DNA of 64,000 bases. Source: a virus. Its lineage: Duplodnaviria; Heunggongvirae; Uroviricota; Caudoviricetes. The position numbers were made by a program, and so were the translations under genes. Of this stretch, positions 22,278 to 64,000 are shown piece by piece; position 1 is the stretch's first letter; every line of letters starts with the position of its first letter. Under the pieces are notes generated by a model. That model made no database searches. It saw nothing but the letters and a program-made list of their open reading frames with translations, and was not told the origin of the DNA. The stretch lies in the IMG/VR virus record IMGVR_UViG_3300031994_000063, one strand, 5' to 3'.

Positions 22278-22838
22278 ATGGCAGTAGGTGTTATCATTGC
22301 AAGAATACAGCCCATACATAAAGGGCATCTTGAGTTAATACGGCAAGCACTAAACGAGAATGAAAATGTTCTTCTGCTCGTTGGTTCTGCCGATAAACTC
22401 AATAAAAGGAATCCAATACCAATTGCTATGAGATTGGAACTCGCTAATAAGGCGATAGAAGAGGCATTTAAAGAGGACTCTAAAAGGGTTAGAATACAAC
22501 CATTAGCAGACCTTACAGATGAATCGGACAACTCTCATGATTGGGGCTTTTATCTCTATAGTCACATTGTTGGGTTTACAAAATCTCCAGAGTTTACAAT
22601 ATATTACTCTGATGGTTTTGAGATAATTATGCAGTGGTTTCCACCTTTCATTACGAGAGATTTCGTATCATTCAAACTTAATGCAAGGGGAACTATCCAC
22701 AATAGTCTGTCTGCTACGAAAGTAAGGGAAATGATTCTTAAAGAGGATATTGAAAGCCTTAGAGAAGCAGTTCCAACTTGCGTTATAGAAAATGCAATGA
22801 TTTTGAAACATTTTATTGAAGCGTTTAAAGACGTATAA
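22278..22838 (+). CDS. nicotinamide/nicotinate mononucleotide adenylyltransferase (NadM-type)
   Basis: GVIIARIQPIHKGHLELIRQA matches the GRFQPxHxGH nucleotidyltransferase motif of archaeal-type NMNAT. Confidence 0.7.
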   Translation: MAVGVIIARIQPIHKGHLELIRQALNENENVLLLVGSADKLNKRNPIPIAMRLELANKAIEEAFKEDSKRVRIQPLADLTDESDNSHDWGFYLYSHIVGFTKSPEFTIYYSDGFEIIMQWFPPFITRDFVSFKLNARGTIHNSLSATKVREMILKEDIESLREAVPTCVIENAMILKHFIEAFKDV

Positions 22839-22979
22839 TAAAAATATAGCTAGTTCCGCAGTACGATAAATAAATTGGCAAGCGTATAACGTTGGTATCC
22901 TATAACGGACTCATATAACATTAGGAGGTCTAGTGAAACTTGTGTGGTGAAAAATCGGAAATCCACAAACTAGCTTTAT

Positions 22980-23053
22980 CGAGGGGTATATCAGTTGGTT
23001 AGATTGTCATCCTGATAAGATGAAGGTCGCAAGTTCAAGTCTTGCCCTCTCGA
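22980..23053 (+). tRNA. tRNA-Ile(GAT) second copy
   Basis: Acceptor cgagggg/cctctcg. Anticodon arm identical to the 15964 copy. T-arm gcaag-ttcaagt-cttgc. Confidence 0.55.
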
Positions 23054-23500
23054 CAATTTTTTATCATGGGCTTGTAATGGATTTGACAGCAATGCATTTG
23101 GTAAGAAACAAGCAGTGGGCATACACTTGAAATAGCAAAAAAAATATAAACGGCGAGAATGTTAATTCTCCTGCTTACGAGTACGCTATTGCAGCGTAAG
23201 TAAGCCGAGAGGCTAGGCTCTTAGGAACAGAACATCCTAGCATTCTTTCTTTAGTCATCTTTTAGTTTTCCTTGTTTTCACAAAACAAGGTGGTCTCAAA
23301 GGCGGTGTCTTCGGACACTTTGGGGAAGCTTGTATAATTTCTTATGGAATGGTTGTTTGGACCGCAGTTCGACTCTGCGCAAGTCCACTTAACTACTTGA
23401 AAATCAAACGCTTAACAAAATTTAAGAAAAAACTTCTTGAAAATTTTGGAACTTTCAAAAATTTTATATATCTTTGCATTGTTAAACAAAAAGACATACA

Positions 23501-23782
23501 ATGAGTAAAATTTTAGATAAAGATTTCAGAAACGAACTATATAAAAGCCTTCAAGAGGCTGGTTATAGCAAAGGAGAGGCTACTAATATTGTTAGTGTAA
23601 AATATTGTGAGGCTCTTAAAATCAATTTAGTTGATAAACTTAGAGAACAAGCAGATAATATTGAGCATGGCAAAGAGGAACTATTGCTTAGTGTTGATGA
23701 ATATAGTAGTATCCTTTCAGAATTGGCTAAACTCAAAGAGTTTTTCGACAAAAAAGAAGAAAAAAATGCAAATAAATCTTAA
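23501..23782 (+). CDS. hypothetical protein
   Basis: 93 aa. Promoter ttttggaactttcaaaaattttatatatctttgcattg upstream. Confidence 0.5.
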   Translation: MSKILDKDFRNELYKSLQEAGYSKGEATNIVSVKYCEALKINLVDKLREQADNIEHGKEELLLSVDEYSSILSELAKLKEFFDKKEEKNANKS

Positions 23783-23841
23783 AAAATTTGGATATTAAAA
23801 ATATTTTTCATATCTTTGCATTGTTGATTTGAAAATAGCAA

Positions 23842-23906
23842 GGAAACTTACAGCAAATTATTCTTAACATCAAATTGTCACTTTGAAACGTTTAGAAAAG
23901 GTTTCC
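23842..23906 (+). ncRNA. hairpin-bounded element copy i
   Basis: ggaaac ttacagcaa ... ggtttcc. Confidence 0.45.
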
Positions 23907-23924
23907 GATTTAAATACATAATAT

Positions 23925-24009
23925 CGTGGGATAGTGTAATGGTAACATGCAAGGCTCATAACCTTGAGACGGAACTCGCATCGTGTTGGTTCGAATCCAA
24001 CTCCCGCAA
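23925..24009 (+). tRNA. tRNA-Met(CAT)-like with C1·A72 and 18-nt variable region
   Basis: Anticodon stem caagg/ccttg with loop ctcataa. T-arm gttgg-ttcgaat-ccaac. 3' end tcccgcaa resembles bacterial initiator tRNA. Confidence 0.45.
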
Positions 24010-24012
24010 CTA

Positions 24013-25588: not shown

Positions 25589-25713
25589 AGGGATTTAGCT
25601 TAATTGGCAAGAGTAATTTGTTGCGACTTAAGGAATAAAGCACTCTCGACTTCGGAACAGAGTGTGCCTTTAACTGTTAATAAACGATGGCGGTTCGAGT
25701 CCGTCAGTCCCTG
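25589..25713 (+). ncRNA. tRNA-like with ~50-nt insertion (contains repeat tctcgacttcggaacaga)
   Basis: Perfect acceptor agggatt/agtccct. D-arm tagcttaattggcaagag. T-arm ggcgg-ttcgagt-ccgtc. Total 125 nt. Confidence 0.35.
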
Positions 25714-26183: not shown

Positions 26184-26230
26184 GGTCAAATGGTTGTAAT
26201 GAAGGTTCGATTCCTTCTGACTAACAAACG

Positions 26231-28054: not shown

Positions 28055-28145
28055 GGGCATATGGCAGAGTGGTTTAATGTGCTGAACTCTAAATTCAGTA
28101 TGGGCTTGAGAAAGTTCATCGTGGGTTCGAATCCTACTATGCTCG
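28055..28145 (+). tRNA. class II tRNA with anticodon CTA (putative amber suppressor)
   Basis: Acceptor gggcata/tatgctc. D-region tggcagagtggtttaatgt. Anticodon stem ctgaa/ttcag with loop ctctaaa. Long variable arm. T-arm gtggg-ttcgaat-cctac. Confidence 0.5.
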
Positions 28146-28244
28146 CTACAGCTAGTACAAAGTTAAAAATTGTTAAAGTTGAACTGATTATTTGGTTAGT
28201 TCACCTTTTTTTCGTACCTTTGCATCAATAAAACAATAAACAGC

Positions 28245-29220: not shown

Positions 29221-29721
29221 ATGAAAGATAAATTAAGAATATTGGGTGTAGAATTACTCAATTCAAATTTGACGATTGGCACAGTAGAACATTGCACTAG
29301 TGGTTTACTTGGCGCATCCATATCAAGTATGTGTGGACTAGATACAGTTTATTGCGGAACAATAGTTGTTGTTGACCAACCCCATATGGAGAAACTATTA
29401 GATGTATCGCCTAACGCAATAAAAAACAATGGGCTTGTAAGTTCCCAAGTGGCTTGCCAAATGGCTCTAAATGGTCTTTATAAGTTAAATACAGATATTT
29501 GTGTTGCGGTGGTTGGTAATGTATTGCCTACGGAAGACTTTAATGAGGATACTTATAATGTCGTTTGGATTTGTATTGCGACAATGACAGATAAAAAAGT
29601 AGATTTTAAATATAGCAAAATACAAGTAGATGGATTACGAGGCCAAAACATTGAAACTGTAATTGAGTCTGCTTTAGAAACTCTTATAGTTGAAATTAAA
29701 CACATTACTGTTGAAAAATAA
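29221..29721 (+). CDS. pncC: CinA-C/PncC-like NMN deamidase
   Basis: LTIGTVEHCTSGLLGASIS matches the CinA C-terminal domain motif (lT.A.AESCTGG). Confidence 0.6.
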   Translation: MKDKLRILGVELLNSNLTIGTVEHCTSGLLGASISSMCGLDTVYCGTIVVVDQPHMEKLLDVSPNAIKNNGLVSSQVACQMALNGLYKLNTDICVAVVGNVLPTEDFNEDTYNVVWICIATMTDKKVDFKYSKIQVDGLRGQNIETVIESALETLIVEIKHITVEK

Positions 29722-31592: not shown

Positions 31593-32414
31593 ATGAAGAA
31601 ATTTTTAGTAGCATTTTCGCTTGCCGTTGTAGCAATGGCAAGTATGACAAGTTGTCATGGTGTACGTCCAGAGGCTGATGAAGAGGCGGTTCTCGTTGAT
31701 AAACCTTGGTTTTTGGGGCATGGCGGCATTAACATGACTCCAGTACAGACTGGTTTGTCATGGGTTTGGTGGAGCACGTCTTCTGAGACATTTAAGATTG
31801 TTCCGTTCAAGCATCAAGTGGATATGGACGATTTGTTCTCTGATGACAACACACCGTTGGATTTTCATACCATTATCATCACACAGATTGAGAAGGGTAA
31901 GTCTCCTATTCTGTTGCAGAATTATGGTGTAGATTGGTTCAATACTAACTTGTATAACTATTACTGTAACTTGGTACGTGACCATATTTCTCAGCATAGT
32001 CCTTTTGACCTTATGAGTAATCGTGCAATCCTCAATGAAATTGACACAAAGGTACTTAAGCAGATGCAAGATTATGTGGCAAAGTTGTCCAAGGAGAAAG
32101 AGTTTCCAGTTGTCATAAAACAAGTTACCATTGGTAAGGCTATGCCTAATAAGGAGCAGTTGGCCGAAATGAACAATACGGCAAAGGCTGTGCAAGCAAA
32201 GCAGACTCAAGAGCGTGAGGCAGAGGTACAGTTAGCTCGTGAAAAGGCTGAACGTCAGAGGGCAATTGCTGATAAGGCATATATGTCAGCACTGAACCTT
32301 ACAGTTCCTCAATACATTGAACTGCGTAAGTGGGAAGTCATTGAAAAGAAGAATGGTGCTAACATTGACGTAGTTGTCGGTGGAGGTACAGCAATGATGT
32401 ATCCAGTAAAATGA
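31593..32414 (+). CDS. lipoprotein, possible SPFH/band-7-like C-terminal region
   Basis: MKKFLVAFSLAVVAMASMTSC lipobox. C-terminal Ala/Glu/Gln-rich helical segment. Higher GC than neighbours. Confidence 0.45.
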   Translation: MKKFLVAFSLAVVAMASMTSCHGVRPEADEEAVLVDKPWFLGHGGINMTPVQTGLSWVWWSTSSETFKIVPFKHQVDMDDLFSDDNTPLDFHTIIITQIEKGKSPILLQNYGVDWFNTNLYNYYCNLVRDHISQHSPFDLMSNRAILNEIDTKVLKQMQDYVAKLSKEKEFPVVIKQVTIGKAMPNKEQLAEMNNTAKAVQAKQTQEREAEVQLAREKAERQRAIADKAYMSALNLTVPQYIELRKWEVIEKKNGANIDVVVGGGTAMMYPVK

Positions 32415-34121: not shown

Positions 34122-34739
34122 ATGAAGAAAGTGACATTATCAAGTTGTATCACCAAACTCTTTTTAGGAGTTGTGATAGTGATGGGATTCATTTGGGTGT
34201 TCTCTAAGCTATTTCCTAGAGCATATGATACATTAGAAGCCAAGGCGTTAGGAATCGAAAAGGACACGGCTACAGTGATTCAGATTACCAAATCGGATAC
34301 AATACCGAAGACTGAAACCACAAAGGTTTTGAAGCAAGTTCCAAATGACTTTAAACTAGCGGTCAAACTACAACATGAGGATAATTGCTACCTTGTTCCC
34401 ACTAAAATCAACGGAATACCGATGATGATGACATTGGATACAGGTGCTACCGACATTTCTATTTCTGTTGTTGAGTATATGTTCTTGAAAAAGCAAAAAT
34501 TACTCAATGATTCAACTCTAGAAAGTGGCCAATGTAGGATTGCCAATGGAGATACGGTAAAGTCTTATACAATCATTATAAATGAGGTAGAAGTGGGAGG
34601 TATAAAGGTTAATAACATACCTTGCGTTGTTATGGAACAGCAAGATGCTCCTTTACTATTAGGTATGAGTGTTTTAAAGAAATTAGGTGATGATATTTCC
34701 ATTGATTACAAACGTAACCTTTTAATATTAAGGAAATAG
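34122..34739 (+). CDS. retropepsin-like aspartic protease with N-terminal TM segment
   Basis: MMMTLDTGATDISIS carries the D-T-G-A active-site motif. GMSVLKKLG near the C-terminus. Confidence 0.55.
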   Translation: MKKVTLSSCITKLFLGVVIVMGFIWVFSKLFPRAYDTLEAKALGIEKDTATVIQITKSDTIPKTETTKVLKQVPNDFKLAVKLQHEDNCYLVPTKINGIPMMMTLDTGATDISISVVEYMFLKKQKLLNDSTLESGQCRIANGDTVKSYTIIINEVEVGGIKVNNIPCVVMEQQDAPLLLGMSVLKKLGDDISIDYKRNLLILRK

Positions 34740-39468: not shown

Positions 39469-39560
39469 AAGCATACAGCAAGTATCTCTGTGGAGGAATG
39501 GTATACTCAATAGTCTGCAAAACTATTTTTTGTGGGTTCGAATCCCACCTTTAATGCTTC
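39469..39560 (+). ncRNA. hairpin-bounded element copy l with internal T-arm gtgggttcgaatcccac
   Basis: gaagcat acagcaag ... atgcttc. A terminator-like hairpin follows at 39574-39604. Confidence 0.45.
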
Positions 39561-44450: not shown

Positions 44451-45072
44451 AATTCGTGATTATTATGATTATCTCCAAAATTATTTTGGTATTGATGAAT
44501 TAGTTGTATATGACAGAAGGAAATCATATCCAATTGATTTGAATAATTTTTATATTGGTTACGGTCTTGATAACATTTTCAAAAAAGAAAAAGATAAGGC
44601 ATATGATATAAAGCGTAGATTGGTTAAAGGGTATGGAATCAAAGTTCCAGTTATGGAAGGAAGAATTTTTTATTTTGTTGTAGAAAGTGGGTATTATCAT
44701 TATTTTTTTAAGATTGAACGGTATCTTGATGATAATGATAAAGTGATTTTAGAGCCGCAACTAATCGAAAAAAAGAAAATTGGCAAAGAACAGAGATTAA
44801 GTGATTGCCCTTTATCTATTTGCACTGATGTGTTATATGCTAGATATAGAGGCACTTTTTCTGTTAGTAAAGATTCAAGAAATGTTGTTGAAAATCCGAT
44901 ATTAAAAAATACATATATTCCTAAATTCATTGATGCAAGAGAAATGTGGAATAATCTTTATGAATACATATCTTCTCTAAGAGATAAAGAATTTGAAGAT
45001 ACAAGAACTAACGACCAACACATAGAATCGCATGGCTTCGACAAAAAAATCAGTTTCAGACATAGAAAATAG
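44434..45072 (+). CDS. hypothetical protein with C-terminal tail SHGFDKKISFRHRK
   Basis: 212 aa. C-terminal motif shared with ORF 20234-20857. Confidence 0.5.
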   Translation: MKIISKIRDYYDYLQNYFGIDELVVYDRRKSYPIDLNNFYIGYGLDNIFKKEKDKAYDIKRRLVKGYGIKVPVMEGRIFYFVVESGYYHYFFKIERYLDDNDKVILEPQLIEKKKIGKEQRLSDCPLSICTDVLYARYRGTFSVSKDSRNVVENPILKNTYIPKFIDAREMWNNLYEYISSLRDKEFEDTRTNDQHIESHGFDKKISFRHRK

Positions 45073-45799
45073 AATCGGGACCACGGAATCAGGTGAAATC
45101 GCTTATAACCTAGATGCTTTTGATAGATTGTATAAAGGTAATATAATCATCACAAAAAGGTTAACCGATAAATTGATAGAAAAACTTATCGAGTATAAAG
45201 ATAAGATAATATTACATTGCTGCGTAACTGGCATGGGTTCAACTCGTATTGAGCCGTTTGTTCCTAATCCGCAAGCAACTCTAGAAAAGTTACAAAAATT
45301 GATTGATGGCGGCTTTCCAACAGACCACATAGTATTAAGGGTTGACCCAATAGTTCCAACTATTAAAGGGTTAAACACTGCTACAAGCGTTTTAAGGCTC
45401 TTTAGAGGGCTTGGGATTAAAAGGGTAAGGATTTCCTTCTTGGACAATTATAAACACGTCAGAGAGCGTTTTAAAGAAATTGGGGTCGAATTATATAATG
45501 GTGAATTTCATGCCCCACTAAAAGAAAGACTCAAATATTTGACTGCTATCAAATATTGTGCTGAAGAATGCGGTTATGAATCTGTTGAAGCTTGTGGCGA
45601 ACCTGGAATTGAAAGTATACCTTGTCTTTCTCAGAAAGATATTGATATTTTAGGTCTTACTGATGAAATTGTGCTAGAAGGAAGTAAAGGACAACGAAAC
45701 AGTTGTCATTGTCCTAGTAATAAAAAAGAATTATTAAAAATAAAGCCGCGTAAATGCAACAATGGCTGTTTATATTGCTACTGGAAAGATGAAAATTGA
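45032..45799 (+). CDS. hypothetical protein with C-terminal CxxxCxxC cysteine cluster
   Basis: 255 aa. RKCNNGCLYCYWK at the extreme C-terminus. HCCVTGMG earlier. Confidence 0.45.
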   Translation: MASTKKSVSDIENRIGTTESGEIAYNLDAFDRLYKGNIIITKRLTDKLIEKLIEYKDKIILHCCVTGMGSTRIEPFVPNPQATLEKLQKLIDGGFPTDHIVLRVDPIVPTIKGLNTATSVLRLFRGLGIKRVRISFLDNYKHVRERFKEIGVELYNGEFHAPLKERLKYLTAIKYCAEECGYESVEACGEPGIESIPCLSQKDIDILGLTDEIVLEGSKGQRNSCHCPSNKKELLKIKPRKCNNGCLYCYWKDEN

Positions 45800-46168: not shown

Positions 46169-46678
46169 ATGTTTAAAATAATTGCATGTATTAACCAAAA
46201 AAGAGCATTGGGAAAGGATGGAAAACTTCTTTACCACATTGGCAATGACCTTGCTAATTTCAAACGTATGACAGTTGGTAATGTTGTCATTATGGGTAGA
46301 AAAACTTTCGAATCCCTTCCCAATGGTGAGCCTCTGAAGGATAGAATAAACATTATTCTTACGACTTCTAGAGATTTTGGAGTAAGTGGGGAATATGATA
46401 ACGTATACATTGTAAACTCAATTGATGACGTTATCGAATTATGTGACGCTTTTTTCTCTGACAAAGAGTTATTTGTAATTGGTGGTGGAGAGATATACCG
46501 TCAGTTTATGGAGAGAAACCTTATCAATGAGTTAAGACTAACTATTGTGGAAGATGACAATGATGGAGATACAATCTTTCCAGAGTTTGACGAAAAAGAA
46601 TGGAGAACCTATTACAAATCAATGTTGCAAGGTAATGGAACTCAATTCTGCTTTCATGTTTTAAAGAAGAACGACTAA
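46169..46678 (+). CDS. folA: dihydrofolate reductase
   Basis: IIACINQKRALGKDGKLLYHIGNDLANFKRMTVGNVVIMGRKTFESL and FVIGGGEIYRQF align with the DHFR signature. Confidence 0.85.
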   Translation: MFKIIACINQKRALGKDGKLLYHIGNDLANFKRMTVGNVVIMGRKTFESLPNGEPLKDRINIILTTSRDFGVSGEYDNVYIVNSIDDVIELCDAFFSDKELFVIGGGEIYRQFMERNLINELRLTIVEDDNDGDTIFPEFDEKEWRTYYKSMLQGNGTQFCFHVLKKND

Positions 46679-53834: not shown

Positions 53835-55250
53835 ATGAAAATTTATGATTATGGTAAAATCAAGACTTGTTTAATATGCGGAAGCATTAATGGGAATGTT
53901 GACCATTTTGTTAAAATGATTGTTGGTAGTCTAACCGACATAAGAAAGTATAAAGTCGAGCAGCACCCAAAAGAAATAGAAAGACAAGAAAGGATTAGAA
54001 GAAAACAAGAAGAAGAGGCTCAAGTATTGGCTGATAGACGCGACCCATTTGGCATAGGTGGCGGCATTCCACACCCTCATGACCAGCATGGCAATACCAT
54101 TAGAAGGTATGCGAAGAAAATAAGCAAAATGCCGAGGTCTTGTGGCTATCTTTTAGATAACACTGTGTTAATTGTCAATGGCTCAAATACATTTGGTCAA
54201 AACGATTTGAAATATTATTATGACAAATTTAATATGCTAAATGATGTGTTAGCCGACAATAACACGCATATCCTATTTGTGAGAGGTAATGATGACCCTA
54301 AATATTTTACGGATGAATTACTTAATCTTAGTAATGTGAAAACTATTCAAGATTATTCTGTAATTAAACTAAGCAAGTTCAACTGTTTATGTATCGGTGG
54401 TCAAGTTTCATTGGACAGACTTTGGAAATCTGAGCAAGAAAAAAGAATAGGTAAGAAAATGTTTTGGGAAAATGAGAAGATGATGTTTGACGAAAATGCT
54501 ATAAACGAAATATTTTCCAAGCACAAAATATCTTGTATTGTTACACCTAGTTCCCCATCATTTGCATATCCAGGAACAAACGTTTTCAAGAAAAGCCCTT
54601 GGGTCGCAAAAGATAAATCTCTTTTAAATGACCTTAACGATGAAAGGGTAATGATGGATAGAATATATAATAAAATCATTGAAAGTAAAAGCAAGCCTTA
54701 TATGTGGGCTTACAGTAGGTTTGATACTTCTAATCAATCTATGATTAATGATATGTTATTTCAATCATTGTGTCCGTTTCAGTTTCTCAACTTTAATGAC
54801 ACAGCCGCAGAATTCTTTAACATCGACTTTTCTAAACAACTTAAAGAAAATGAATTTTCGTCAAATGGCGAAATGGTTAAAAAATCTTATACCATTTCAT
54901 CGTCAATAGGAGATTTTAGGAATGCCTTTAATGATGATGACATTTTTGGTGTAGCTGACGAAGAAATTGACGAAGATGACCATGCTGAAGAGGGTAATGA
55001 ACAAGAAGAAATGGGAGATTTTGAAATGGCAAATCCAAATATGGAAATGGCGCAAGTTGAGGCTGAAAATGTCAATGAAATGAATGGAGTACCGTATTTA
55101 GGTGATACGATACATTGGGAACCTGGACGCTATGCAATACTTGAAGATAATATAGCAGCACCAACTCTTGATATGGATGTGGCAACTGCTGAGAGAGCAG
55201 TGCCCTATGAAATATTTCGAGAAAGCGTTGACGTAGCATTAAGGCAATAA
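53835..55250 (+). CDS. metallophosphoesterase-like protein (degenerate motifs), acidic C-terminus
   Basis: ICGSINGNVDHF and HILFVRGNDDP loosely resemble calcineurin-like phosphoesterase motifs (GDxHG, GNH[DE]). C-terminal 100 aa very acidic. Confidence 0.3.
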   Translation: MKIYDYGKIKTCLICGSINGNVDHFVKMIVGSLTDIRKYKVEQHPKEIERQERIRRKQEEEAQVLADRRDPFGIGGGIPHPHDQHGNTIRRYAKKISKMPRSCGYLLDNTVLIVNGSNTFGQNDLKYYYDKFNMLNDVLADNNTHILFVRGNDDPKYFTDELLNLSNVKTIQDYSVIKLSKFNCLCIGGQVSLDRLWKSEQEKRIGKKMFWENEKMMFDENAINEIFSKHKISCIVTPSSPSFAYPGTNVFKKSPWVAKDKSLLNDLNDERVMMDRIYNKIIESKSKPYMWAYSRFDTSNQSMINDMLFQSLCPFQFLNFNDTAAEFFNIDFSKQLKENEFSSNGEMVKKSYTISSSIGDFRNAFNDDDIFGVADEEIDEDDHAEEGNEQEEMGDFEMANPNMEMAQVEAENVNEMNGVPYLGDTIHWEPGRYAILEDNIAAPTLDMDVATAERAVPYEIFRESVDVALRQ

Positions 55251-55265
55251 ATGTAGGAGGAGAAA

Positions 55266-56033
55266 ATGGCACAAACCAATAGCAAATTTTATTCGTTGAT
55301 GGTTGTCGGCGAAAACCCTAAAAGCATAGTGGAAAAATATGGTTCTGAATACAAAACAGAACCATATGTAAAATACAAATATCTAAATGCTAAAAAATAT
55401 CAAGATACAGCAATTAAAACACTTGATACTATGTTAGCAAATATTGACAAAATAGGTTTACCGCCAACAACCAAAGAGGCTTTGGAAAATAGGCTAGACA
55501 CCATCAAAAAACTATCTCCATTTGAATACTACAGAGAACTTACCGATGGTATGTACTATAATGAAAATGGGGATGCATTATCAGAAGAAAACCCAAACGT
55601 TAAGTATAATACTTGTAGGATAGGGCGCAATTTCTGTATACCATTGAAATTGAAAGATGGGTCAGAATCATATAGCGCACTTGCTAAAGACGTTGATTGG
55701 GATGCGATGAATGGCGCTAACAAAGAGGTATATGAATCTGCTTGGGAACTTGTGGTCGATGGTAGAGAGCCACAGAACGACCAAGAGAAGACCATTTACG
55801 AATCAATGAAGGATAGGGAAGCATACTTTGAGAACTTCAAGTCAAAAGAGTCTTACGTTACCTATAGCACAGCATACTGGAATTATGCCTACGCTGATAA
55901 GAATGGATGGGTTGATGTTGACGATGATGGAAATGAGGAAAGATGGATAAATGAATTCTATTCTAGATTCGTTGAAAAACTGAAACCAAATGACCTTGTA
56001 TCCATTTTTGAATGTTCAATCAATAATGGTTAA
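55266..56033 (+). CDS. hypothetical acidic protein
   Basis: 255-aa ORF. Terminator follows at 56047-56081. Confidence 0.5.
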   Translation: MAQTNSKFYSLMVVGENPKSIVEKYGSEYKTEPYVKYKYLNAKKYQDTAIKTLDTMLANIDKIGLPPTTKEALENRLDTIKKLSPFEYYRELTDGMYYNENGDALSEENPNVKYNTCRIGRNFCIPLKLKDGSESYSALAKDVDWDAMNGANKEVYESAWELVVDGREPQNDQEKTIYESMKDREAYFENFKSKESYVTYSTAYWNYAYADKNGWVDVDDDGNEERWINEFYSRFVEKLKPNDLVSIFECSINNG

Positions 56034-56046
56034 AAAAATTAAAAAA

Positions 56047-56081
56047 ACGTGAGATAATTTTGCTGTCTCACGTTTTTTTCA
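56047..56081 (+). terminator. rho-independent terminator
   Basis: acgtgagata ... tctcacgt followed by ttttttt. Confidence 0.55.
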
Positions 56082-56114
56082 TATATTTGCATTAACGTAA
56101 AATGTAAACTAATT

Positions 56115-57074
56115 ATGGCTGAAAATACACTGTTATTTAAACAATTTAGAAGTAAATTTGTCAAAGACTTCAATTTGCCCATCCAAGTTGTCCAATCGCC
56201 TTATTTTGACGAACATATAAAACTACTTGAGGATGATTGTGGGGCAAATACAAAATATCTCACCTTGTTAGAAACTGTTAGAGATAAATTTGACGGTAAT
56301 ATGCAGAAATTCCTTGAGTATCGGCATATCATTGAAGACCAAATATTAGCCTATATACTAAATTCTGAGGCTTACAAGGAGTTTAATAACGATAAGAACA
56401 CAATTCCCTCAGAAACACCAATTGTAGGCTCTAGAGAACTCTATACGAAAGAACAAGATGGATGCTTTTTCATATCCTATGATATGATTAAGGCAAATTT
56501 CCAAGCATTGAGGTATGCAAATCCAGCAATTGTAAGGGATTGCAACACATATGAAGAGTTTATTGGCAAGTTTACTGACATCGAATATTTTGCCCATGCA
56601 AAACAACTTAGGCAAGTAATATTCGGTAAACTAAATGGCAAAAGAACTGCTTCGATTGAGAAATTAATTTCAAATAGATTCGCAAAAGAATATAGTCAGA
56701 GATTAGGAATATATGGATTTGAACCATATTCAATTAAAACTGATGAAATTATCTTCAAGTTTGATTGTAGTGAATCAGAATTTGAATCTTTTCACTCTTC
56801 TGACATAGAATTCAGTGGATTTAAATTCCGTGTGAACAAATTTAAACTTATGTCTCAAGACTTCAAACGTGGAGTTTCTGACAGAATTGTCACGGCATAT
56901 ATTAAAGAAGATTATTTAAATGGCAGGAAACACACTTTACATTGCGTTCCTGACACTTATTACCCACAAGTGTATAAACTACTCAATGGGATGGAAATAA
57001 CGCCATCAGATTTAGTTTTCTACTATGAACACGAATTGGCTAAATTTATGTATCCGTTAGAAATGATAAAATAA
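56115..57074 (+). CDS. hypothetical protein
   Basis: 319 aa. Promoter cacgtttttttcatatatttgcattaacg upstream. Confidence 0.5.
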   Translation: MAENTLLFKQFRSKFVKDFNLPIQVVQSPYFDEHIKLLEDDCGANTKYLTLLETVRDKFDGNMQKFLEYRHIIEDQILAYILNSEAYKEFNNDKNTIPSETPIVGSRELYTKEQDGCFFISYDMIKANFQALRYANPAIVRDCNTYEEFIGKFTDIEYFAHAKQLRQVIFGKLNGKRTASIEKLISNRFAKEYSQRLGIYGFEPYSIKTDEIIFKFDCSESEFESFHSSDIEFSGFKFRVNKFKLMSQDFKRGVSDRIVTAYIKEDYLNGRKHTLHCVPDTYYPQVYKLLNGMEITPSDLVFYYEHELAKFMYPLEMIK

Positions 57075-57075
57075 A

Positions 57076-58482
57076 ATGAACGAACTATTATTTAAAAAAG
57101 TTGATGATAGAATCAAACACCTAGTTGACCTCATACAAGCGTCAATCAAAAACACCCATTTTGAAGGAAAGGTATATTTGGTTGGCGGTTGTGTGCGCGA
57201 TGCATTGTTAGGATTGCCCATTAAAGACATCGACATCGTTGTTGAAATGAAGAACGGGGGGATGCTGTTTGCTGGATATATGGCAATGAAACATCAATGC
57301 TATGTTCAGAATACTAATCCAGTGATATTTGAAAACTATGGAACTGCGAAGTTCCAATTATTCAAGAATGATGAATTCAAAGATATAGAGATTGAATGTG
57401 TCCAAACTAGAAAGGAACAGTACCACAAGGAAAGCAGAAACCCAGAAACTGTATTCGGAAGCCTTGAAGAAGACGCAAAGAGGCGTGACCTTACCATTAA
57501 TTCTCTATATTATAACATCAGTACAGAGAAAATACATGATTTTAACGGCTCTTTAGATGACTTGGTAAATCAAGTAATAAAGACTCCAACTGACCCAGAT
57601 GTTACATTCAATGATGACCCATTGAGAATTCTACGTGTAATTCGTTTTTCAACTAGATTCGGTTGGGATATTGAAAAAAACACTTGGTTAGGTATGGTTA
57701 AAAATGCGCACCGTATTCAAATTATTTCACAAGAAAGAATTAGTGATGAAATATCCAAGATTCTACTTTGTGAAAAACCAAGTATCGGTATTAGGAAAAT
57801 GTATTTCTGTGGCATTCTGCATAGAGTGATGCCCGATATTTATGATACAACCTACGCTTATGAGTCAAGGAATCCTATGGTTAGCACATTTGACCATACG
57901 ATGAACGTGCTAGATACTGTTCAGCCTTATTTAGAAAACAGATTAGCTGCTTTATTCCATGATGTTGGTAGAATCATAACAGAGAAGCGTAGGGATGTAA
58001 TGCCAGATAAGTTTAGTGCAGAAATTGCTGCAAGCGACTTGAAGGACATGAAATACCCTAATTACATCATTAAATCTGTTGAAACTGCTATTAAGCATCA
58101 TAGAGGTTTTGCAAGTTATGCTGATGGTATATTGCCTCCAGATAAGAAGATTAGGAAATTCATCAACTTAACTGGTGATGATTTAGGAGCAACTGTTGAC
58201 CTAATGAACGCCAATAATCTCTATTGTACTTTTGGTAAGAAGAAAAGACAAGTTCTTGATATTCTCAATAGAATTGAAGAAATGGAAGACGCTGAAAAAG
58301 CAGCAAATGTTAAACTTCCAATTTCTGGGAATGACATCATAAAAGAATTTAAAATCAAACCTTCTCCAACAATCGGCATATTGCTTGAGGCAGTCAAAGA
58401 TGCTTACTTTGAGAATCCTAATATGACTAAGGATGAAGCATTTGAGATTGTAGAGAACAAATTGAAGAGCCTAACAGTCTAA
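57076..58482 (+). CDS. cca: tRNA nucleotidyltransferase (CCA-adding enzyme) with HD domain
   Basis: YLVGGCVRDALLGLPIKDIDIVV is the class II polymerase-beta head motif. LAALFHDVGR is the HD motif. 468 aa is typical of bacterial CCA enzymes. Confidence 0.8.
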   Translation: MNELLFKKVDDRIKHLVDLIQASIKNTHFEGKVYLVGGCVRDALLGLPIKDIDIVVEMKNGGMLFAGYMAMKHQCYVQNTNPVIFENYGTAKFQLFKNDEFKDIEIECVQTRKEQYHKESRNPETVFGSLEEDAKRRDLTINSLYYNISTEKIHDFNGSLDDLVNQVIKTPTDPDVTFNDDPLRILRVIRFSTRFGWDIEKNTWLGMVKNAHRIQIISQERISDEISKILLCEKPSIGIRKMYFCGILHRVMPDIYDTTYAYESRNPMVSTFDHTMNVLDTVQPYLENRLAALFHDVGRIITEKRRDVMPDKFSAEIAASDLKDMKYPNYIIKSVETAIKHHRGFASYADGILPPDKKIRKFINLTGDDLGATVDLMNANNLYCTFGKKKRQVLDILNRIEEMEDAEKAANVKLPISGNDIIKEFKIKPSPTIGILLEAVKDAYFENPNMTKDEAFEIVENKLKSLTV

Positions 58483-58520
58483 TCTATTAGGCTCTTTAAG
58501 TAATATATAATGACAATAAC

Positions 58521-58829
58521 TTACTTATGCCTATTACGTGGATGGAGTGAATTCAAATATTGTCTTTCATCTTTATACCCCATGTCATTGAATGAACGCA
58601 TGTTTTTTTTATTTGGGCTAATATTACTTTGCTTTTCTGCATAGTCATCTGTGGCGATAAAATTTAAATCTCCTTTGGCTGATTGCCTTCCAGCTAATCT
58701 ACCAAGCATATATTGACCCTTTGGCGTATCACCAATTTCTTTCAAAATATTGTTCACAGATTCTCTAACAATTCTGTGAAGGTCACTTTCTGTTAGTCTA
58801 ATCAATTTCTTATTCATATTTAAATACAT
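58521..58829 (-). CDS. hypothetical protein (only convincing minus-strand gene)
   Basis: 102-aa ORF with no plus-strand ORF overlapping. Diverges from an AT-rich palindromic intergenic region at 58830-59020. Confidence 0.45.
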   Translation of the reverse strand: MYLNMNKKLIRLTESDLHRIVRESVNNILKEIGDTPKGQYMLGRLAGRQSAKGDLNFIATDDYAEKQSNISPNKKNMRSFNDMGYKDERQYLNSLHPRNRHK

Positions 58830-59023
58830 ATTTATTTGATTATTATCCTATATAAATATCAGCAAGCACAAAAAATACAGCCACTTCTAGCCACATTTTA
58901 CAAATCATTTGGGTCAACTGCTATATTATATTATTATTAATTAATATTAAAATATATTAATAATATATATTATATTTTTATATTTAAATTATTTTTAGTA
59001 TATTTGCGTAAAAAAGAAAAACT

Positions 59024-59386
59024 ATGGGTACACTATGTAAAAACTGTCCTTTCAAAGGCATTAAAACTGAAACGGATTCTTGTACTACTCTATTTGCAAA
59101 AAAATATCATAACTCTTGTGTTACGTATGATATTACTAGACATAAGGAGAAACAAGAAAGGGAAGAATTCATAAAGGAACTTGAGGAGTTTACTAATGAA
59201 AAGAAAACAGCGAAAACACTTGATGAAACTACTAAAGTTAAAAAGGTATCAAAACCAAGAAAATCAAGAAAGCCTAAAAAAGAAACAAACGATAAAGGTA
59301 TAGAAACAAAAGAAACTATTGCAGAAATTGTTGGCAGTATTGCTAATGCTGCTGTGGTTTGCGAAAATAATAATAAAACAGAATAA
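59024..59386 (+). CDS. hypothetical basic protein with N-terminal Cys cluster
   Basis: MGTLCKNCPFKG..SCTT..HNSC. Lys-rich C-terminal half. Confidence 0.45.
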   Translation: MGTLCKNCPFKGIKTETDSCTTLFAKKYHNSCVTYDITRHKEKQEREEFIKELEEFTNEKKTAKTLDETTKVKKVSKPRKSRKPKKETNDKGIETKETIAEIVGSIANAAVVCENNNKTE

Positions 59387-59393
59387 ATTATAT

Positions 59394-59969
59394 ATGAATA
59401 AAATCTTAATTTTAATAGATAGTCAATATGGCTTTCTAGAAGGTGGCAATCTTCCAGTGGAAGGCGCAACCCATAAAATGAATCGTCTTGCTGAATTTAT
59501 ACGTGAAAACGGTCCAGCATATGATAAGATATTTCTAACGGCAGATTGGCATCCGCATACGCATTGTTCATTCAAGGCAAACGGTGGGGTATGGCCAGAA
59601 CATTGCGTACAACATACGCATGATGCAGCAATCTATCAGCCAATTATTGATGCTTTGAACGCTATTAATAGTGACTACATTGTTTTGACTAAAGGGGTTG
59701 ATGAAGACCACGAGGAATATTCAGTGTTTAAGAATGAAAAGTCTAATGCATTGCTTACCAACATATGCGAAATGATGAAAGTGACTGATATTGACATTTG
59801 CGGTATCGCATTAGACGTATGTGTATTTGATTCTTTGAAAGATGGATTAAGGGCATTCCCAAATACTAATTTTCACCTTCTTATTGATTTTTGCCCAGCA
59901 ATAACAAAAGATGGGGAGGAAAAAGTTATAAACTTTATCAATAATTCAGAAAGAGTAAATATTGGATAA
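59394..59969 (+). CDS. pncA: nicotinamidase/pyrazinamidase
   Basis: LILIDSQYGF (catalytic Asp), DWHPHTHCSF and WPEHC (metal site), LTKG (Lys), DICGIALDVCV (catalytic Cys). Start set at MNKILIL. Confidence 0.8.
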   Translation: MNKILILIDSQYGFLEGGNLPVEGATHKMNRLAEFIRENGPAYDKIFLTADWHPHTHCSFKANGGVWPEHCVQHTHDAAIYQPIIDALNAINSDYIVLTKGVDEDHEEYSVFKNEKSNALLTNICEMMKVTDIDICGIALDVCVFDSLKDGLRAFPNTNFHLLIDFCPAITKDGEEKVINFINNSERVNIG

Positions 59970-59972
59970 TAA

Positions 59973-60227
59973 ATGAGTAGGATAGAAATACCGATGACGG
60001 AGTATAATGGTTTAAAAAATAAAATTAAATCATTAGAGCAAACTCTAGTTGATGTTTCAAAGGAAACAGCAATATATAAAGAGAAATTAAGCATCTTGGA
60101 AAGCCTTGTTATGGATTTGGAAGATGAAAAAGTCCTTAACAGAATCTTTAGTTGGAAAAACATCGTTAACCCATTTAAAGAAGTATTCAAAAAGGATGGT
60201 AAAAAGCAAGAAACTAAGACAACTTAG
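59973..60227 (+). CDS. hypothetical coiled-coil protein
   Basis: 84-aa ORF. Heptad-like pattern. Confidence 0.4.
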   Translation: MSRIEIPMTEYNGLKNKIKSLEQTLVDVSKETAIYKEKLSILESLVMDLEDEKVLNRIFSWKNIVNPFKEVFKKDGKKQETKTT

Positions 60228-60825
60228 AATAAAAAGAAAACTAAAAAAGGCTAAAAAGGTGGAAGAACAAATAAAAAAAAACCCATATGCTGATATTGAT
60301 TCTGAATTTTGTGGAATTAGTAAAAACCACCAACTAGTACGAGATTTTTGTAGGGCATTAAAAAACAAAAAAGTTTTTGGTTTATTCCGCATAAGATATT
60401 CGATAAAAGACGTTTCTCCTATAGAAAAAAGAAATGCGCTAAGAGTGTACTCTCCCATCCCTTTGAAAGACATCACACTGTATGAACAACTAGATAAATC
60501 TGATTTGATAAAAAGGCTTAGAGTGCTTTCTAAGATGTTTTATTTAAATCATTATGATGTTAATAAATGGGAAAAAATAAATAATACTAGTATATCTAGT
60601 TATTTAAAATTCTACGCTGAAGATTATTTGAGCAAAAAATCTTATCCGATAAAACACTCATTATTGTATTATCAATTTTTGTTCGGAATAGGCTCTGCTA
60701 TAGTTGGACTTGTTTTAATGTTTTGTCTTATATACTATATGTGGGGATATTCTGCATTAATGACAATGTTAGGGTTGTTGTTGGTATATAGTGCTATCGT
60801 GACAACAGAAATCTATAAAAGATAA
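60106..60825 (+). CDS. hypothetical protein, Lys-rich N-terminus and C-terminal TM helices (start uncertain)
   Basis: 239-aa ORF overlapping the previous ORF in another frame. C-terminal FLFGIGSAIVGLVLMFCLIYYMWGYSALMTMLGLLLVYSAIV. Confidence 0.4.
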   Translation: MLWIWKMKKSLTESLVGKTSLTHLKKYSKRMVKSKKLRQLRIKRKLKKAKKVEEQIKKNPYADIDSEFCGISKNHQLVRDFCRALKNKKVFGLFRIRYSIKDVSPIEKRNALRVYSPIPLKDITLYEQLDKSDLIKRLRVLSKMFYLNHYDVNKWEKINNTSISSYLKFYAEDYLSKKSYPIKHSLLYYQFLFGIGSAIVGLVLMFCLIYYMWGYSALMTMLGLLLVYSAIVTTEIYKR

Positions 60826-60844
60826 CGTTTTTTAACATGATTTA

Positions 60845-60880
60845 TTTGGGTATTTGAAATATTTTTCGTACCTTTGCACC
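60845..60880 (+). promoter_or_regulatory. promoter driving tRNA-like gene at 61086
   Basis: tttgggtatttgaaatatttttcgtacctttgcacc. Confidence 0.5.
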
Positions 60881-61085
60881 ATGAAGCTTCAAAACGGTAA
60901 CTGAAAGACGTGGTGAGGGCAGTCCTGCCACACGACATTGCTAAGATATAACAGTCTCGACTTCGGAACAGATTGACGCTTGCAATGGAGTTAGTTTGAC
61001 CGAGATTGTAAAACAGTCGGTTATCAAGCAATCACTTAGATGAGTGCGGAAGAAGGAAACGCTAGCCGCATGAAGATTGCGTTAA

Positions 61086-61170
61086 GGACAATAGCTCAGT
61101 TGGGAGAGCGCACAAGAAACGTGGAAACACAAAGTAAGGTGAGGTCTGTAGTTCGAGTCTACATTGTCCT
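61086..61170 (+). ncRNA. tRNA-like with ~25-nt insertion carrying a GGAAAC-motif fragment
   Basis: Perfect acceptor ggacaat/attgtcc. D-arm agctcagttgggagagc. T-arm tgtag-ttcgagt-ctaca. Insertion aagaaacgtggaaacacaaagtaagg. Confidence 0.4.
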
Positions 61171-61186
61171 ACTAATTAATAAAAAA

Positions 61187-61390
61187 ATGGCAACAGAAAC
61201 TTTAGGAGCACATCTTAGGAATTTATTAACCCCATATAAAACATTGTTGTCTCTTGTTGAGGACATCAATAATGGAGAAATTGAATTGGATGTTCTGAAA
61301 AAAATCAAATGTGATAACATTGACGAAATTATAGAATTTTCCCATTCCGACAAAATGGAAAATAATTTGTGGAGAGAAGAAACAGAATAA
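61187..61390 (+). CDS. hypothetical protein (start trimmed out of tRNA-like gene)
   Basis: ATG at 61187 (MATETLGAHL...). Confidence 0.45.
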   Translation: MATETLGAHLRNLLTPYKTLLSLVEDINNGEIELDVLKKIKCDNIDEIIEFSHSDKMENNLWREETE

Positions 61391-61408
61391 TCAATAAAAA
61401 TAAAATTT

Positions 61409-62317
61409 ATGAGTCTAGAAGTTTATCAAAAAATAAACACCTTGCATAAAAGGTATGTATTTGATGGCAATAAATGTCCAAACAAAAAGTGGCTTAAGTT
61501 CAAAAATAAAATAATCTTGGGCGAGTTTTCAAACATTGAGGCTAGTTACCTTTTCAATTGTCCTTGGGAGGCATATAGTAAGATAGATGGCACAAACTCT
61601 AAGATTGCATTTTTTCCATCTACCCAAGAGATTCGTATTGAGGGTAAAAACGAGGAATCAAGCTCTCAGCATGGACAGTTCGAAATGTTGCAAGAGATTG
61701 GTGAGCGTATCAAGCCACAACTTTGTGCAATGTTCCCAAAAGAGAGTGCTAGATTTACCCCAGTAAAGAACAAAGAAACCAATAAGGTTCAATATTACCT
61801 AGAGGCAGATGGTTCAGCCCTTATTGAGCCTAAAAATGGGTTTGTTGGTGTGGAACTTGAAGAGACTCCAGTTTATATCTACGGAGAGTATTTTGGTACT
61901 GGTATTCAGAAGTGCGGTTCTCGTTATATTCAGAATGGTAATGCATTCCGTGTGTTTGACATAAAACAGCAAGGTTGGTGGACACCAAAGGATGTAAGAG
62001 ACTCATTGTGTAAGGGTCTTGGACTAGACACTGTTCCTTTCTTGGGTATAATGACGCTCAAGGAAATCGAAGATAAGGTTAGGGGTGGCTTCACAACTCA
62101 GTTTGAGGGCGCTGCTGACCCAACTATGATTGAGGAGGGTATTGTTGCTCGTCCAGTGATTCCACTTTGCGATGGAAGCGGTAAGAGAATCATCGTAAAG
62201 GTTAAATACTGTGATTACATTGCGTATGACACTGTGCGTAAGGAGTTTTCAGACGAAGAGTTTGAAGAGTTTAACACATGGTATCACGAAAACATTGAAA
62301 ATATTAAAGTAGAGTGA
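61409..62317 (+). CDS. RNA ligase, Rnl2-like
   Basis: Motif I KIDGTN (compare KIHGTN of T4 Rnl2). Motif IV EGIVARP. Motif V IIVKVK. Size consistent. Confidence 0.65.
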   Translation: MSLEVYQKINTLHKRYVFDGNKCPNKKWLKFKNKIILGEFSNIEASYLFNCPWEAYSKIDGTNSKIAFFPSTQEIRIEGKNEESSSQHGQFEMLQEIGERIKPQLCAMFPKESARFTPVKNKETNKVQYYLEADGSALIEPKNGFVGVELEETPVYIYGEYFGTGIQKCGSRYIQNGNAFRVFDIKQQGWWTPKDVRDSLCKGLGLDTVPFLGIMTLKEIEDKVRGGFTTQFEGAADPTMIEEGIVARPVIPLCDGSGKRIIVKVKYCDYIAYDTVRKEFSDEEFEEFNTWYHENIENIKVE

Positions 62318-62550
62318 TGGCTAGAGACTTGTTTAGAAGTATAATCAGAATAATAATTGTGCTGTGCCTAATGGGTAGTTGTGTTGAGGGATGTTATTTT
62401 ATGAGTGAACTATCAAAAAACCAAACTGATAGGTATAACCCATATTATAACAACTCTAGGAGTTACCCATATGGTAACGTTGAAGAAGCAGAGGAAATAG
62501 ACTATGAGCCAATTAACACAGATACAATCAGTGAGACGTTCAAGCCCTAA
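62314..62550 (+). CDS. hypothetical protein
   Basis: 78 aa. ATGA overlap with the upstream gene. Confidence 0.4.
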   Translation: MMARDLFRSIIRIIIVLCLMGSCVEGCYFMSELSKNQTDRYNPYYNNSRSYPYGNVEEAEEIDYEPINTDTISETFKP

Positions 62551-62941
62551 AGCTAAAAAAGTGTTTATTTACCACAAGAATAGTGGGCGCACGGATTTTT
62601 TGCCTTTTAGGGTTGGCGATATTGTTCGTGTCATAGATTGGGGAGAATCTTATTCTACTTATAAAAAGGCATTTATTTATTTTACAAATAGTGCGGACAC
62701 ACCATACTATTGTGGGTTTACCTTAGAAACAGAAAAACGAAGAAAAGAAGATGGTGATAAACAATGTTTTAAGATAATAAATATTGCAGAGCATGGAGAT
62801 AATAATGGAAATATAGTTTGCTATATTCAAGATAGGGCTAAACATGGCGTAGTTATAGGGCCAGAAGGCTTAAAACTAGTAAAACAATTTCCTCTTAGAA
62901 AAAATGAAACAATTAACATATTATTAAAAAAAATAAAATGA
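62504..62941 (+). CDS. hypothetical protein
   Basis: 145-aa ORF. No motifs recognised. Confidence 0.45.
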   Translation: MSQLTQIQSVRRSSPKAKKVFIYHKNSGRTDFLPFRVGDIVRVIDWGESYSTYKKAFIYFTNSADTPYYCGFTLETEKRRKEDGDKQCFKIINIAEHGDNNGNIVCYIQDRAKHGVVIGPEGLKLVKQFPLRKNETINILLKKIK

Positions 62942-64000
62942 AACAGATTATTACACATTTTACTGACAATGACGCATATACCTTTACTTGCCAGTATTAC
63001 ATTCTTCACACATATCCTCGTGCAGAGGTGCGGTATTCATTTTTTGACCGCAACCACACACGTTATCCAAAAGGTTTTGGTGAACTGTTGCAAGAACAGA
63101 TTAATGGCATGAAAGATGTTGTGATTACAGAGGATGAAATAGATTTTATGAAAAGTCGTATTTACTTCCTTCCTGAATGGTATTACAACTTTCTACGTGG
63201 TTTTAGATTTAATCCCTCAGAGGTACATATTTTCCAAGACCTTGATGGGTATCTGTCCATTATGATTGAAGGCAAATGGTATTCTACAATTATGTGGGAA
63301 ATGCCTATTCTTTCAACAATATCTGAACTCATGCATATCATCAATGGTGATATTGAAAAATATGACACCAAAATAGAATGGGAGAAAGCATATGAGAAGG
63401 GTATGAAAGCATTGGAGGGTGGATTGCTGCTCTCAGATATGGGAACTAGACGTAGATTCTCGTTTGAGAACCAGTATAACGTTCTTCATGCGTTGAAAAA
63501 GGCATTTGTTGATTGTGACAAACTAGGTAAGTGCAACGGTAAACTAGTAGGTACATCTAACGTGTGGTTCGCAAAGGAGTTTGGTATGACACCAATCGGC
63601 ACGATGAGCCACCAAATATGCTCTTTTGAGGAATGCGTTAGTGGTGTATTTGAATGCAATCATCAAGTCATGACGAAATGGTCTGATGTCTATGACGGTG
63701 ACTTGGGCATTTATCTACCAGATTGCTTTGGCTCTAATGTATTTTTGTCAAATTTCTCCAAGAAAATGGCCAAGATGTTTGACGGAATCCGAATTGACAG
63801 CGGTGACGAAAAGGAAGAGACCGAGAAGATGATTGAGAAATATAACTCTCTTGGTATTGACCCTAAAACCAAGTCAATAGTATATTCCAATGCCCTTACA
63901 ATAGATAAGGCTATTGATTTACATAAGTGGCTTGATGGACGCATGAAGGATTCTTATGGCATAGGAACGCATCTTATGGCTGACGTTACCAACAGTGAAA
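62938..64000 (+). CDS. pncB: nicotinate phosphoribosyltransferase (partial, runs off window end)
   Basis: Translated by hand. FTDNDAYTFT, FLPEWYYNFLRGFRFNPSEV, IMWEMPILSTISELMH, DMGTRRRFSF, GTMSH and GIRIDSGD align closely with E. coli PncB blocks. Confidence 0.85.
   Translation, partial: MKQIITHFTDNDAYTFTCQYYILHTYPRAEVRYSFFDRNHTRYPKGFGELLQEQINGMKDVVITEDEIDFMKSRIYFLPEWYYNFLRGFRFNPSEVHIFQDLDGYLSIMIEGKWYSTIMWEMPILSTISELMHIINGDIEKYDTKIEWEKAYEKGMKALEGGLLLSDMGTRRRFSFENQYNVLHALKKAFVDCDKLGKCNGKLVGTSNVWFAKEFGMTPIGTMSHQICSFEECVSGVFECNHQVMTKWSDVYDGDLGIYLPDCFGSNVFLSNFSKKMAKMFDGIRIDSGDEKEETEKMIEKYNSLGIDPKTKSIVYSNALTIDKAIDLHKWLDGRMKDSYGIGTHLMADVTNSE

Follow-up and report, generated by a model that had tools for sequence, protein, structure and literature searches.

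A probable reduced and dispersed Preiss-Handler NAD+ salvage gene set in a gut/rumen jumbo phage

Candidate NAD+ genes and their products

We analyzed a 64,000-nucleotide stretch of the IMG/VR virus record IMGVR_UViG_3300031994_000063 (Caudoviricetes), referred to here as the window, with respect to genes of nicotinamide adenine dinucleotide (NAD+) metabolism. A sequence-only reading had assigned six open reading frames (ORFs) of the window to one NAD+ pathway, namely those of a nicotinamidase (PncA), a nicotinate phosphoribosyltransferase (PncB), a NadM-type adenylyltransferase, a Nudix hydrolase, a CinA/PncC-like protein and a HIT hydrolase. All six were confirmed at their positions on the + strand (Table 1), the strand that carries every sizeable ORF of the window; the guanine + cytosine content is ~34%. 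A contig from the European Nucleotide Archive (L001), 100% identical to window positions 58266–64000, extends the window by 4.1 kb, and the total sequence examined was the window plus 4 kb, or ~68 kb.

The start of the candidate pncA gene matches an independent gene call on the identical contig L001. The top NCBIfam match of its product was the PncA family PRK11609 with 63 bits, which does not reach the family cutoff of 174 and marks the protein as a divergent member. In the PDB, the best match was the PncA of P. horikoshii (1ILW, E = 8e-22), and the seven matches at E ≤ 0.01 were nicotinamidases or pyrazinamidases, bar one labelled only 'alpha/beta-hydrolase-like'. When the protein was aligned to 1ILW, whose triad is D10, K94 and C133, a catalytic triad of D9, K100 and C143 was present, and D51, H53 and H70 (motifs DWHP and EHCVQ) fell on the metal ligands of 1ILW. 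A generic isochorismatase was ruled out by this nicotinamidase metal site and triad. Based on the Pfam domain, the structural matches and the intact active site, the gene is predicted to encode a genuine PncA, as had been claimed.

The pncB gene is cut by the window end. Its full-length product, as read from L001, has 407 amino acids, and the stop codon lies at window-equivalent position 64161. Even in its cut form, the protein scored 308 bits against the nicotinate phosphoribosyltransferase (NAPRTase) equivalog TIGR01514, above the cutoff of 269.55, and both NAPRTase domains were detected. The best PDB match of the 407-residue protein was the NAPRTase 2IM5 (E = 1e-73). Residue H225 (motif GTMSH), which is invariant in seven phage PncBs, aligns with the His in the GTHPHE motif of 2IM5, the conserved histidine at which the enteric enzyme is autophosphorylated. 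The assignment of this gene as a genuine PncB is hence well backed by domain content and by the equivalog score.

Two features follow pncB past the window end. A terminator-like hairpin with an 11-bp stem, followed by a T run, begins 16 bases 3' of the pncB stop codon and suggests that pncB is the end of a transcription unit. Further on, 0.45 kb downstream of pncB, lies a NADAR-domain gene, a placement that is kept in eight loci of the window clade described below. Because NADAR proteins are tied to NAD/ADP-ribose chemistry, we regard this gene as a seventh candidate for the NAD set.

For the candidate adenylyltransferase, the top NCBIfam matches were PRK01153 (archaeal/NadM NMNAT), with 54.5 bits versus a cutoff of 127, and TIGR01527, with 47.4 bits versus 181. 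A profile built from 11 phage homologs matched only NMNAT, NadM-Nudix and NadR chains in the PDB, among them 1F9A (at 2.4e-11), the NadM-Nudix protein 2QJT and NadR. The two ATP-binding motifs, HKGH at residues 14–17 (HxGH) and SATKVR at residues 145–150 (SxTxxR), are invariant in the 11 homologs. The protein is likely a divergent NadM-like NMNAT, and the earlier assignment to the NadM type stands in this form, with the homolog profile matching NMNAT-type structures only.

In the Nudix hydrolase, the Nudix box (GX5EX7REUXEEXGU) is intact at residues 87–109. An invariant Pro lies 16 residues past the box, a feature that may mark ADP-ribose pyrophosphatases. The NCBIfam matches of this protein were all weak and its Foldseek matches were mixed, comprising NrtR-ADPR, Dcp2, NudC, MutT and NadM-Nudix structures.

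The CinA/PncC-like protein has a well-defined fold. Its AlphaFold2 model reached a predicted local distance difference test (pLDDT) value of 91, and a Foldseek search with the model returned only CinA/PncC structures, including 2A9S of A. tumefaciens (template modelling score 0.88, root-mean-square deviation 1.7 Å). In AtCinA, the mutants S31A, K63A, Y58A and R145A are inactive, which supports a Ser/Lys dyad (PMC5384747). Relative to AtCinA, the window protein has H24 for S31, M56 for K63, V51 for Y58 and V98 for T105, and the ESCTGG block reads EHCTSG. These substitutions recur in the subfamily: EHCTSG, with His at the Ser site, was found in 26 of 28 aligned homologs, a hydrophobic residue at the Lys site in 27 and Val at the Tyr site in 23. 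The canonical S, Y, K and T are all retained in one distant member, P0040, which is encoded on a 375 kb phage-like contig. Within the P-I block, the phage subfamily still conserves E, C, T and G, and the Arg in GLRG (R140) is kept in 24/28 homologs; this Arg may be the equivalent of R145 and lies in a region unaligned with solved PncC structures. Since the four P-I residues and the candidate phosphate-ligand Arg stay conserved, the protein is evidently under selection. It is probably not a nicotinamide mononucleotide (NMN) deamidase by the known mechanism. Members of the EHCTSG subfamily (the window protein and the homologs P0001–P0040) could be pseudoenzymes, could bind a ligand or could catalyse a new chemistry, and a 'PncC' annotation in this lineage is no safe basis for assuming a deamidase. 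Of the proposal that the protein feeds NMN into the deamidated branch, the CinA/PncC fold was retained, whereas the deamidation step is not supported, Ser/Lys/Tyr being replaced by His/Met/Val.

The CinA-like and HIT genes overlap where the former stops and the latter starts. The HIT product displays the histidine triad HxHxHxx as HCHIHVI at residues 92–98, and its PDB matches were of the Hint, Fhit and Ap4A phosphorylase types. Judged by these matches, it is a generic Hint/Fhit-type protein. The order CinA ... HIT ... AAA_25 ... Nudix is a backbone common to the window and a distant relative, the 375 kb phage L066. In L066, the CinA-like and HIT genes are 4.4 kb apart, so that their adjacency in the window is lineage-specific and carries little functional weight; a conserved CinA-HIT functional pair or operon was rejected as a general rule on the same grounds.

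Gene linkage in other viral contigs

An alignment-based scan of IMG/VR yielded 227 PncB-encoding stretches, and gene layouts were read from the best 80 of these. The commonest layout among the 80 loci was PncA-PncB-NadE-NadD-Nudix, present at 28 loci, plus permutations. When the count was confined to the 63 loci flanked by 4 kb or more on each side, 51 had PncA, 45 NadE, 36 NadD and 36 Nudix. These counts are not independent because many loci come from few metagenomes, although the pattern is still clear. Similar groupings were seen in individual large contigs. A 356 kb relative (L007) has a compact cluster of PncA, NadE (PF02540, 153 bits), PncB, Nudix and a NadD-like gene, while three further contigs (L057, L058 and L059) carry PncA-PncB-NadE, with NadD too in L057. 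The huge-phage genomes LR756500, LR756501 and LR756511 hold PncB homologs, and in LR756501 a PncA homolog lies ~7 kb from the PncB. A PncB is also annotated in cultured jumbo phages, among them Agrobacterium phage Atu_ph07. Taken together, PncA and PncB show a strong linkage in viral contigs, and NadE, NadD and one particular type of Nudix usually accompany the pair.

As a separate observation, the five genes form a compact cassette (L074, L092–L148) in dozens of viral contigs of 100–190 kb, many of them from human-gut-type metagenomes, and in some of these contigs a CCA-adding enzyme adjoins the cassette.

The window belongs to a clade of eight loci that is an exception to the common layout: pncB has no NadE or NadD nearby, an RNA ligase gene lies between pncA and pncB, and the NADAR gene lies downstream. 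In all eight related loci with an upstream flank, PncA precedes PncB by ~3.5 kb, and the window order of CCA-adding enzyme, PncA, RNA ligase, PncB and NADAR is kept in seven related IMG/VR loci. Scans of IMG/VR for NadE gave nine contigs, none among the closest relatives, although these scans used only two narrow peptide patterns and are a weak negative.

The window Nudix gene lies ~20 kb upstream of the pncB region. Its link to the NAD genes comes from the relatives. Compared with the Nudix proteins encoded between PncB and NadD in L007 and L056, the window protein showed 30–33% identity (E = 1e-19 to 1e-22; 30% and E = 2e-20 for L007 alone), and Nudix homologs were found within or adjoining PncB/NadE/NadD clusters at 38 of the 80 PncB loci, which argues for an NAD-linked role. 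As to the suggestion that the Nudix and HIT hydrolases could act on ADP-ribose or related nucleotides, the neighbourhoods in relatives tie the Nudix to NAD genes, whereas no such role is supported for the HIT protein, which has no NAD-specific feature. Similarly, the six-gene NAD set held in part: PncA, PncB and Nudix are linked in relatives, whereas the CinA-like and HIT proteins fail as pathway steps. As judged from gene content across the viral contigs, the grouping of PncA, PncB and Nudix is more than chance.

The phage and the surrounding genes

A megablast search with window positions 55000–64000 against INPHARED gave no match, and among deposited phage genomes there was no close match. 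At the protein level, the relatives are IMG/VR viral contigs of 100–412 kb, and rumen and gut metagenome assemblies hold exact copies of window proteins. The closest relative, IMGVR_UViG_3300021256_000001 (295 kb), shares identical gene spacing with the window and has 99% identity for NMNAT, 93% for the CinA-like protein, 96% for PncA and 88% for PncB. Another close relative, a 388 kb contig, encodes the Nudix homolog P0062. We conclude that the window derives from a gut/rumen jumbo phage. A 76.5 kb Logan contig (L061) represents a variant of the window phage population with an identical NMNAT; in this contig, and not in the window, a gene for an IS1595-family transposase is located ~6 kb upstream of NMNAT.

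With respect to the host, the best structural match of PncB, 2IM5, is a Porphyromonas protein, and a BACON-domain protein is encoded within the NAD cluster of the 435 kb relative L057. Both point to Bacteroidota hosts. Bacteroidota are also the hosts of the main jumbo-phage clade in Li et al. 2024 (PMC11662467).

The window is rich in tRNA genes. Approximately 30–36 of these transfer RNA genes are present at window positions 2264–39556, with the lists of ARAGORN and Rfam differing, and a transfer-messenger RNA (tmRNA) gene lies among them (Table 1). An Rfam scan of the window found no NAD riboswitch. The tRNA with the anticodon CUA could act as an amber suppressor, which is a hint that stop codons may be recoded in other parts of the phage genome. 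The genes for a CCA-adding enzyme and an RNA ligase flank pncA and, together with the tRNA array, look like a tRNA repair/maintenance module interleaved with the NAD genes.

Table 1. Features of the window, of the stretch past its end and of two related contigs (aa, amino acids; coordinates are those of the window unless a contig is named).
Feature	Coordinates	Strand	Domain, match or remark
PncA, predicted nicotinamidase, 191 aa	59394–59969	+	PF00857, 31.4 bits
PncB, predicted nicotinate phosphoribosyltransferase	62938–64000 (cut by window end)	+	PF17767 and PF04095
Likely NadM-like nicotinamide/nicotinate mononucleotide adenylyltransferase, 186 aa	22278–22838	+	PF01467 (CTP_transf_like)
Nudix hydrolase, 197 aa	41888–42481	+	PF00293, 50.8 bits
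CinA/PncC-fold protein	29221–29721	+	PF02464, 81 bits
HIT-family hydrolase, 122 aa	29721–30089	+	PF01230, 87.8 bits
NADAR-domain gene	L001 6347–6853 (window-equivalent 64612–65118)		PF08719, 150.8 bits; past window end
Terminator-like hairpin and T run	L001 5912–5939 (window-equivalent 64177–64204)		
CCA-adding enzyme	57076–58482		PolyA_pol head and HD domain
RNA ligase	61409–62317		PF09414; between pncA and pncB
tmRNA	23068–23390		tag peptide GENVNSPAYEYAIAA
tRNA	28055–28146		anticodon CUA; labelled 'Pyl' by ARAGORN
tRNA calls added by Rfam	8483–8556, 14639–14713, 17617–17688, 17778–17849, 25589–25713, 39484–39556		
SPFH/Band 7 protein	31593–32414		
Retropepsin-like aspartyl protease	34122–34739		
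DUF1848 protein	45032–45799		
Dihydrofolate reductase	46169–46678		
Ankyrin-repeat protein, 686 aa	51635–53695		
IS1595-family transposase	L061 3283–4302		
BACON-domain protein	L057 8622–11120		

Proposed route, alternatives and known systems

We consider it probable that the candidate genes include a reduced, dispersed version of the viral Preiss-Handler NAD+ salvage cassette. In the proposed route, PncA would convert nicotinamide to nicotinate, and PncB would form nicotinate mononucleotide (NaMN) from nicotinate and phosphoribosyl pyrophosphate (PRPP). The phage NadM-like enzyme or host NadD would then convert NaMN to nicotinate adenine dinucleotide (NaAD), and an NAD synthetase, most likely the host NadE, would convert NaAD to NAD+. 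Based on gene linkage, the cassette-type Nudix would most plausibly act on ADP-ribose or NAD(H)-type dinucleotides and release AMP and ribose-5-phosphate, the latter for PRPP. The net effect would be a faster recycling of nicotinamide, and perhaps ADP-ribose, to NAD+ during infection, which could serve the NAD+ demand of the phage or make up for part of an NAD+ loss. Neither the CinA-like gene nor the HIT gene provides a demonstrable step of this route. The predicted PncA and PncB steps have a residue-level basis, while what the NMNAT and Nudix act on, the need for the NadE of the host and the role in physiology are inferred. The most economical reading of the gene content is that the lineage keeps PncA, PncB and the NadM-like enzyme and leaves the amidation to the host. 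The apparent loss of NadE and NadD from this one jumbo-phage lineage implies that the final step or steps fall to the host. In practical terms, these findings delimit the smallest set of genes with which the route could be put to the test against NADase defences. A deamidated (Preiss-Handler) phage route, with NadE from the host or from elsewhere in the genome, had been put forward in the sequence-only reading and appears sound, given an apparently genuine PncA and PncB, a NadM-like enzyme and a linked Nudix.

Several observations weigh against this route. The candidate NAD genes are dispersed across 41 kb between unrelated genes and tRNAs. The adenylyltransferase misses all curated NMNAT cutoffs, even though its top families are NMNATs, and its residues 78–137 are unlike archaeal NMNAT and have no counterpart in solved NMNATs. 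Sequence and fold searches with the Nudix picked out no single substrate. A tblastn search with the NadE and NadD proteins of relatives found neither in the window plus the 4 kb from L001, in agreement with the earlier statement that no NadE is visible in the window, and neither was found within 10 kb of pncB in seven relatives of the clade. The sequence at hand hence does not encode the whole route. Finally, a literature search retrieved no functional tests of phage PncA or PncB.

Among the alternatives, a dedicated counter-defence role is possible, and we hold it only tentatively. The set would then rebuild NAD+ from the nicotinamide that TIR, SIR2 and further NADase effectors free, and would be a deamidated counterpart of the phage routes with experimental support, NARP1 (Adps + Namat), NARP2 (Nampt + Nmnat) and NARP3 (PnuC + NadR). 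NADase defences free nicotinamide and ADP-ribose, and NARP1–3 show that phages rebuild NAD+; PncA and PncB would consume the nicotinamide, and the linked Nudix could recycle the ADP-ribose. The NADAR gene, kept close behind pncB throughout the clade, fits this role as well. However, many NADases are inhibited by their product nicotinamide, and its removal could thus even favour depletion. Moreover, the route requires ATP and four steps, the NadE on which this phage would depend was not found in the window plus 4 kb, and no experimental test of a counter-defence role of the phage route was found in the literature. Li et al. 2024 (PMC11662467) proposed that phage NAD+ synthesis counters Sir2-type NAD+ depletion, pending experiments, yet the cassette fits equally well with a general boost of NAD+ where the host has no salvage of its own, an argument made in the same study.

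It is less likely still that the HIT, Nudix and CinA-like proteins serve nucleotide or RNA housekeeping and that the NAD genes are limited to those of PncA and PncB, perhaps joined by the NMNAT. Their roles would then be the removal of AMP adducts, the clean-up of NAD caps or dinucleotides, or ligand binding, alongside the tRNA/tmRNA/CCA/RNA ligase module. The ~30 tRNAs, the tmRNA, the CCA-adding enzyme and the RNA ligase of the window are consistent with this explanation, as are the generic Hint/Fhit type of the HIT protein, the decapping enzymes Dcp2 and NudC among the Nudix fold matches and the loss of the deamidase residues from the CinA-like protein. The synteny of CinA, HIT, AAA_25 and Nudix with the distant 375 kb phage likewise places these genes in a shared backbone. 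In contrast, the presence of Nudix homologs in or beside PncB/NadE/NadD clusters at 38/80 viral loci ties at least this family to the NAD genes. A mere coincidence of six unrelated accessory genes with NAD-flavoured annotations, as the 41 kb spread with its many intervening genes and the failure of the HIT and CinA-like proteins as pathway steps (2/6) might suggest, is very improbable. For PncA, PncB and Nudix, conserved linkage largely refutes it, since PncA and PncB are linked in every related locus examined and dozens of viral contigs have the same families in tight cassettes of five genes.

Beyond the reduced Preiss-Handler cassette that we favour, a bolder combination of two ideas can be formulated, which is unlikely to hold in both parts. 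First, the reduced set would constitute a fourth, host-NadE-dependent NAD+ reconstitution route that rescues the phage from TIR/SIR2-type defences, using nicotinamide through PncA/PncB and ADP-ribose through Nudix-derived ribose-5-phosphate and PRPP. Second, the EHCTSG protein would be no relic, and would instead be a rewired enzyme or a sequesterer of a pyridine-nucleotide- or ADP-ribose-derived ligand.

Compared with known systems, the window protein of the CinA/PncC fold shares with bacterial PncC (2A9S) the fold, the E/C/T/G residues of P-I and perhaps the phosphate-binding Arg, but it has His, Met and Val where 2A9S has the catalytic Ser and Lys and the substrate Tyr. The PncA, PncB and Nudix of the five-gene IMG/VR cassette are homologous to those of the window. 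The cassette includes NadE and NadD, whereas the window clade lacks both near pncB and has its Nudix 20 kb upstream and NADAR and RNA ligase genes as neighbours. Like the window set, NARP2 starts from nicotinamide, uses a phosphoribosyltransferase followed by an adenylyltransferase and has an associated Nudix. It differs in following the amidated route from nicotinamide via NMN to NAD, for which PncA and NadE are not needed, and the window enzyme is a NAPRTase equivalog, not a Nampt. The salvage system of Vibrio phage KVP40 reportedly consists of Nampt and an NMNAT with a Nudix domain. NARP1 and NARP3 have phage-encoded NAD+ restoration in common with the reading of the window, with different chemistry and proteins. 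Among the ~65 window ORFs scanned, which include part of the small ones, Pfam searches found no PRPP-synthetase-like protein, Namat, PnuC, NadR kinase or Nampt. While NARP1–3 have experimental support, the deamidated phage route has so far been predicted from genomes only.

The closest comparison is with the gut jumbo phages of Li et al. 2024 (Microbiome 12:268; PMC11662467), who described 668 such phages, 174 of them with complete salvage or Preiss-Handler pathways, showed a pncB-nadD-nadE cluster and mentioned a phage pncA. Based on this study and on the recurrent IMG/VR cassette, the earlier view that a phage Preiss-Handler route would be a novelty was not upheld: the window set is a trimmed copy of a cassette that is common in viral contigs and has already been described in jumbo phages. 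Both groups are gut/rumen jumbo phages with a phage-encoded pncB, and the relatives of the window, at 295–412 kb, stem from metagenomes of the same kind. The class of Li et al. is defined by a complete pathway, whereas the window phage has neither NadE nor NadD in the 68 kb seen. The window further differs in its NadM-like adenylyltransferase, its dispersed genes and the RNA ligase between pncA and pncB, and the main text of Li et al. does not mention Nudix or NADAR partners or an altered CinA-like protein (PMC11662467). As the concept has already been published, the gain is incremental. It lies in the reduced and probably host-dependent layout of this lineage, the Nudix as a regular partner, NADAR as a neighbour and a PncC-fold protein with altered catalytic residues.

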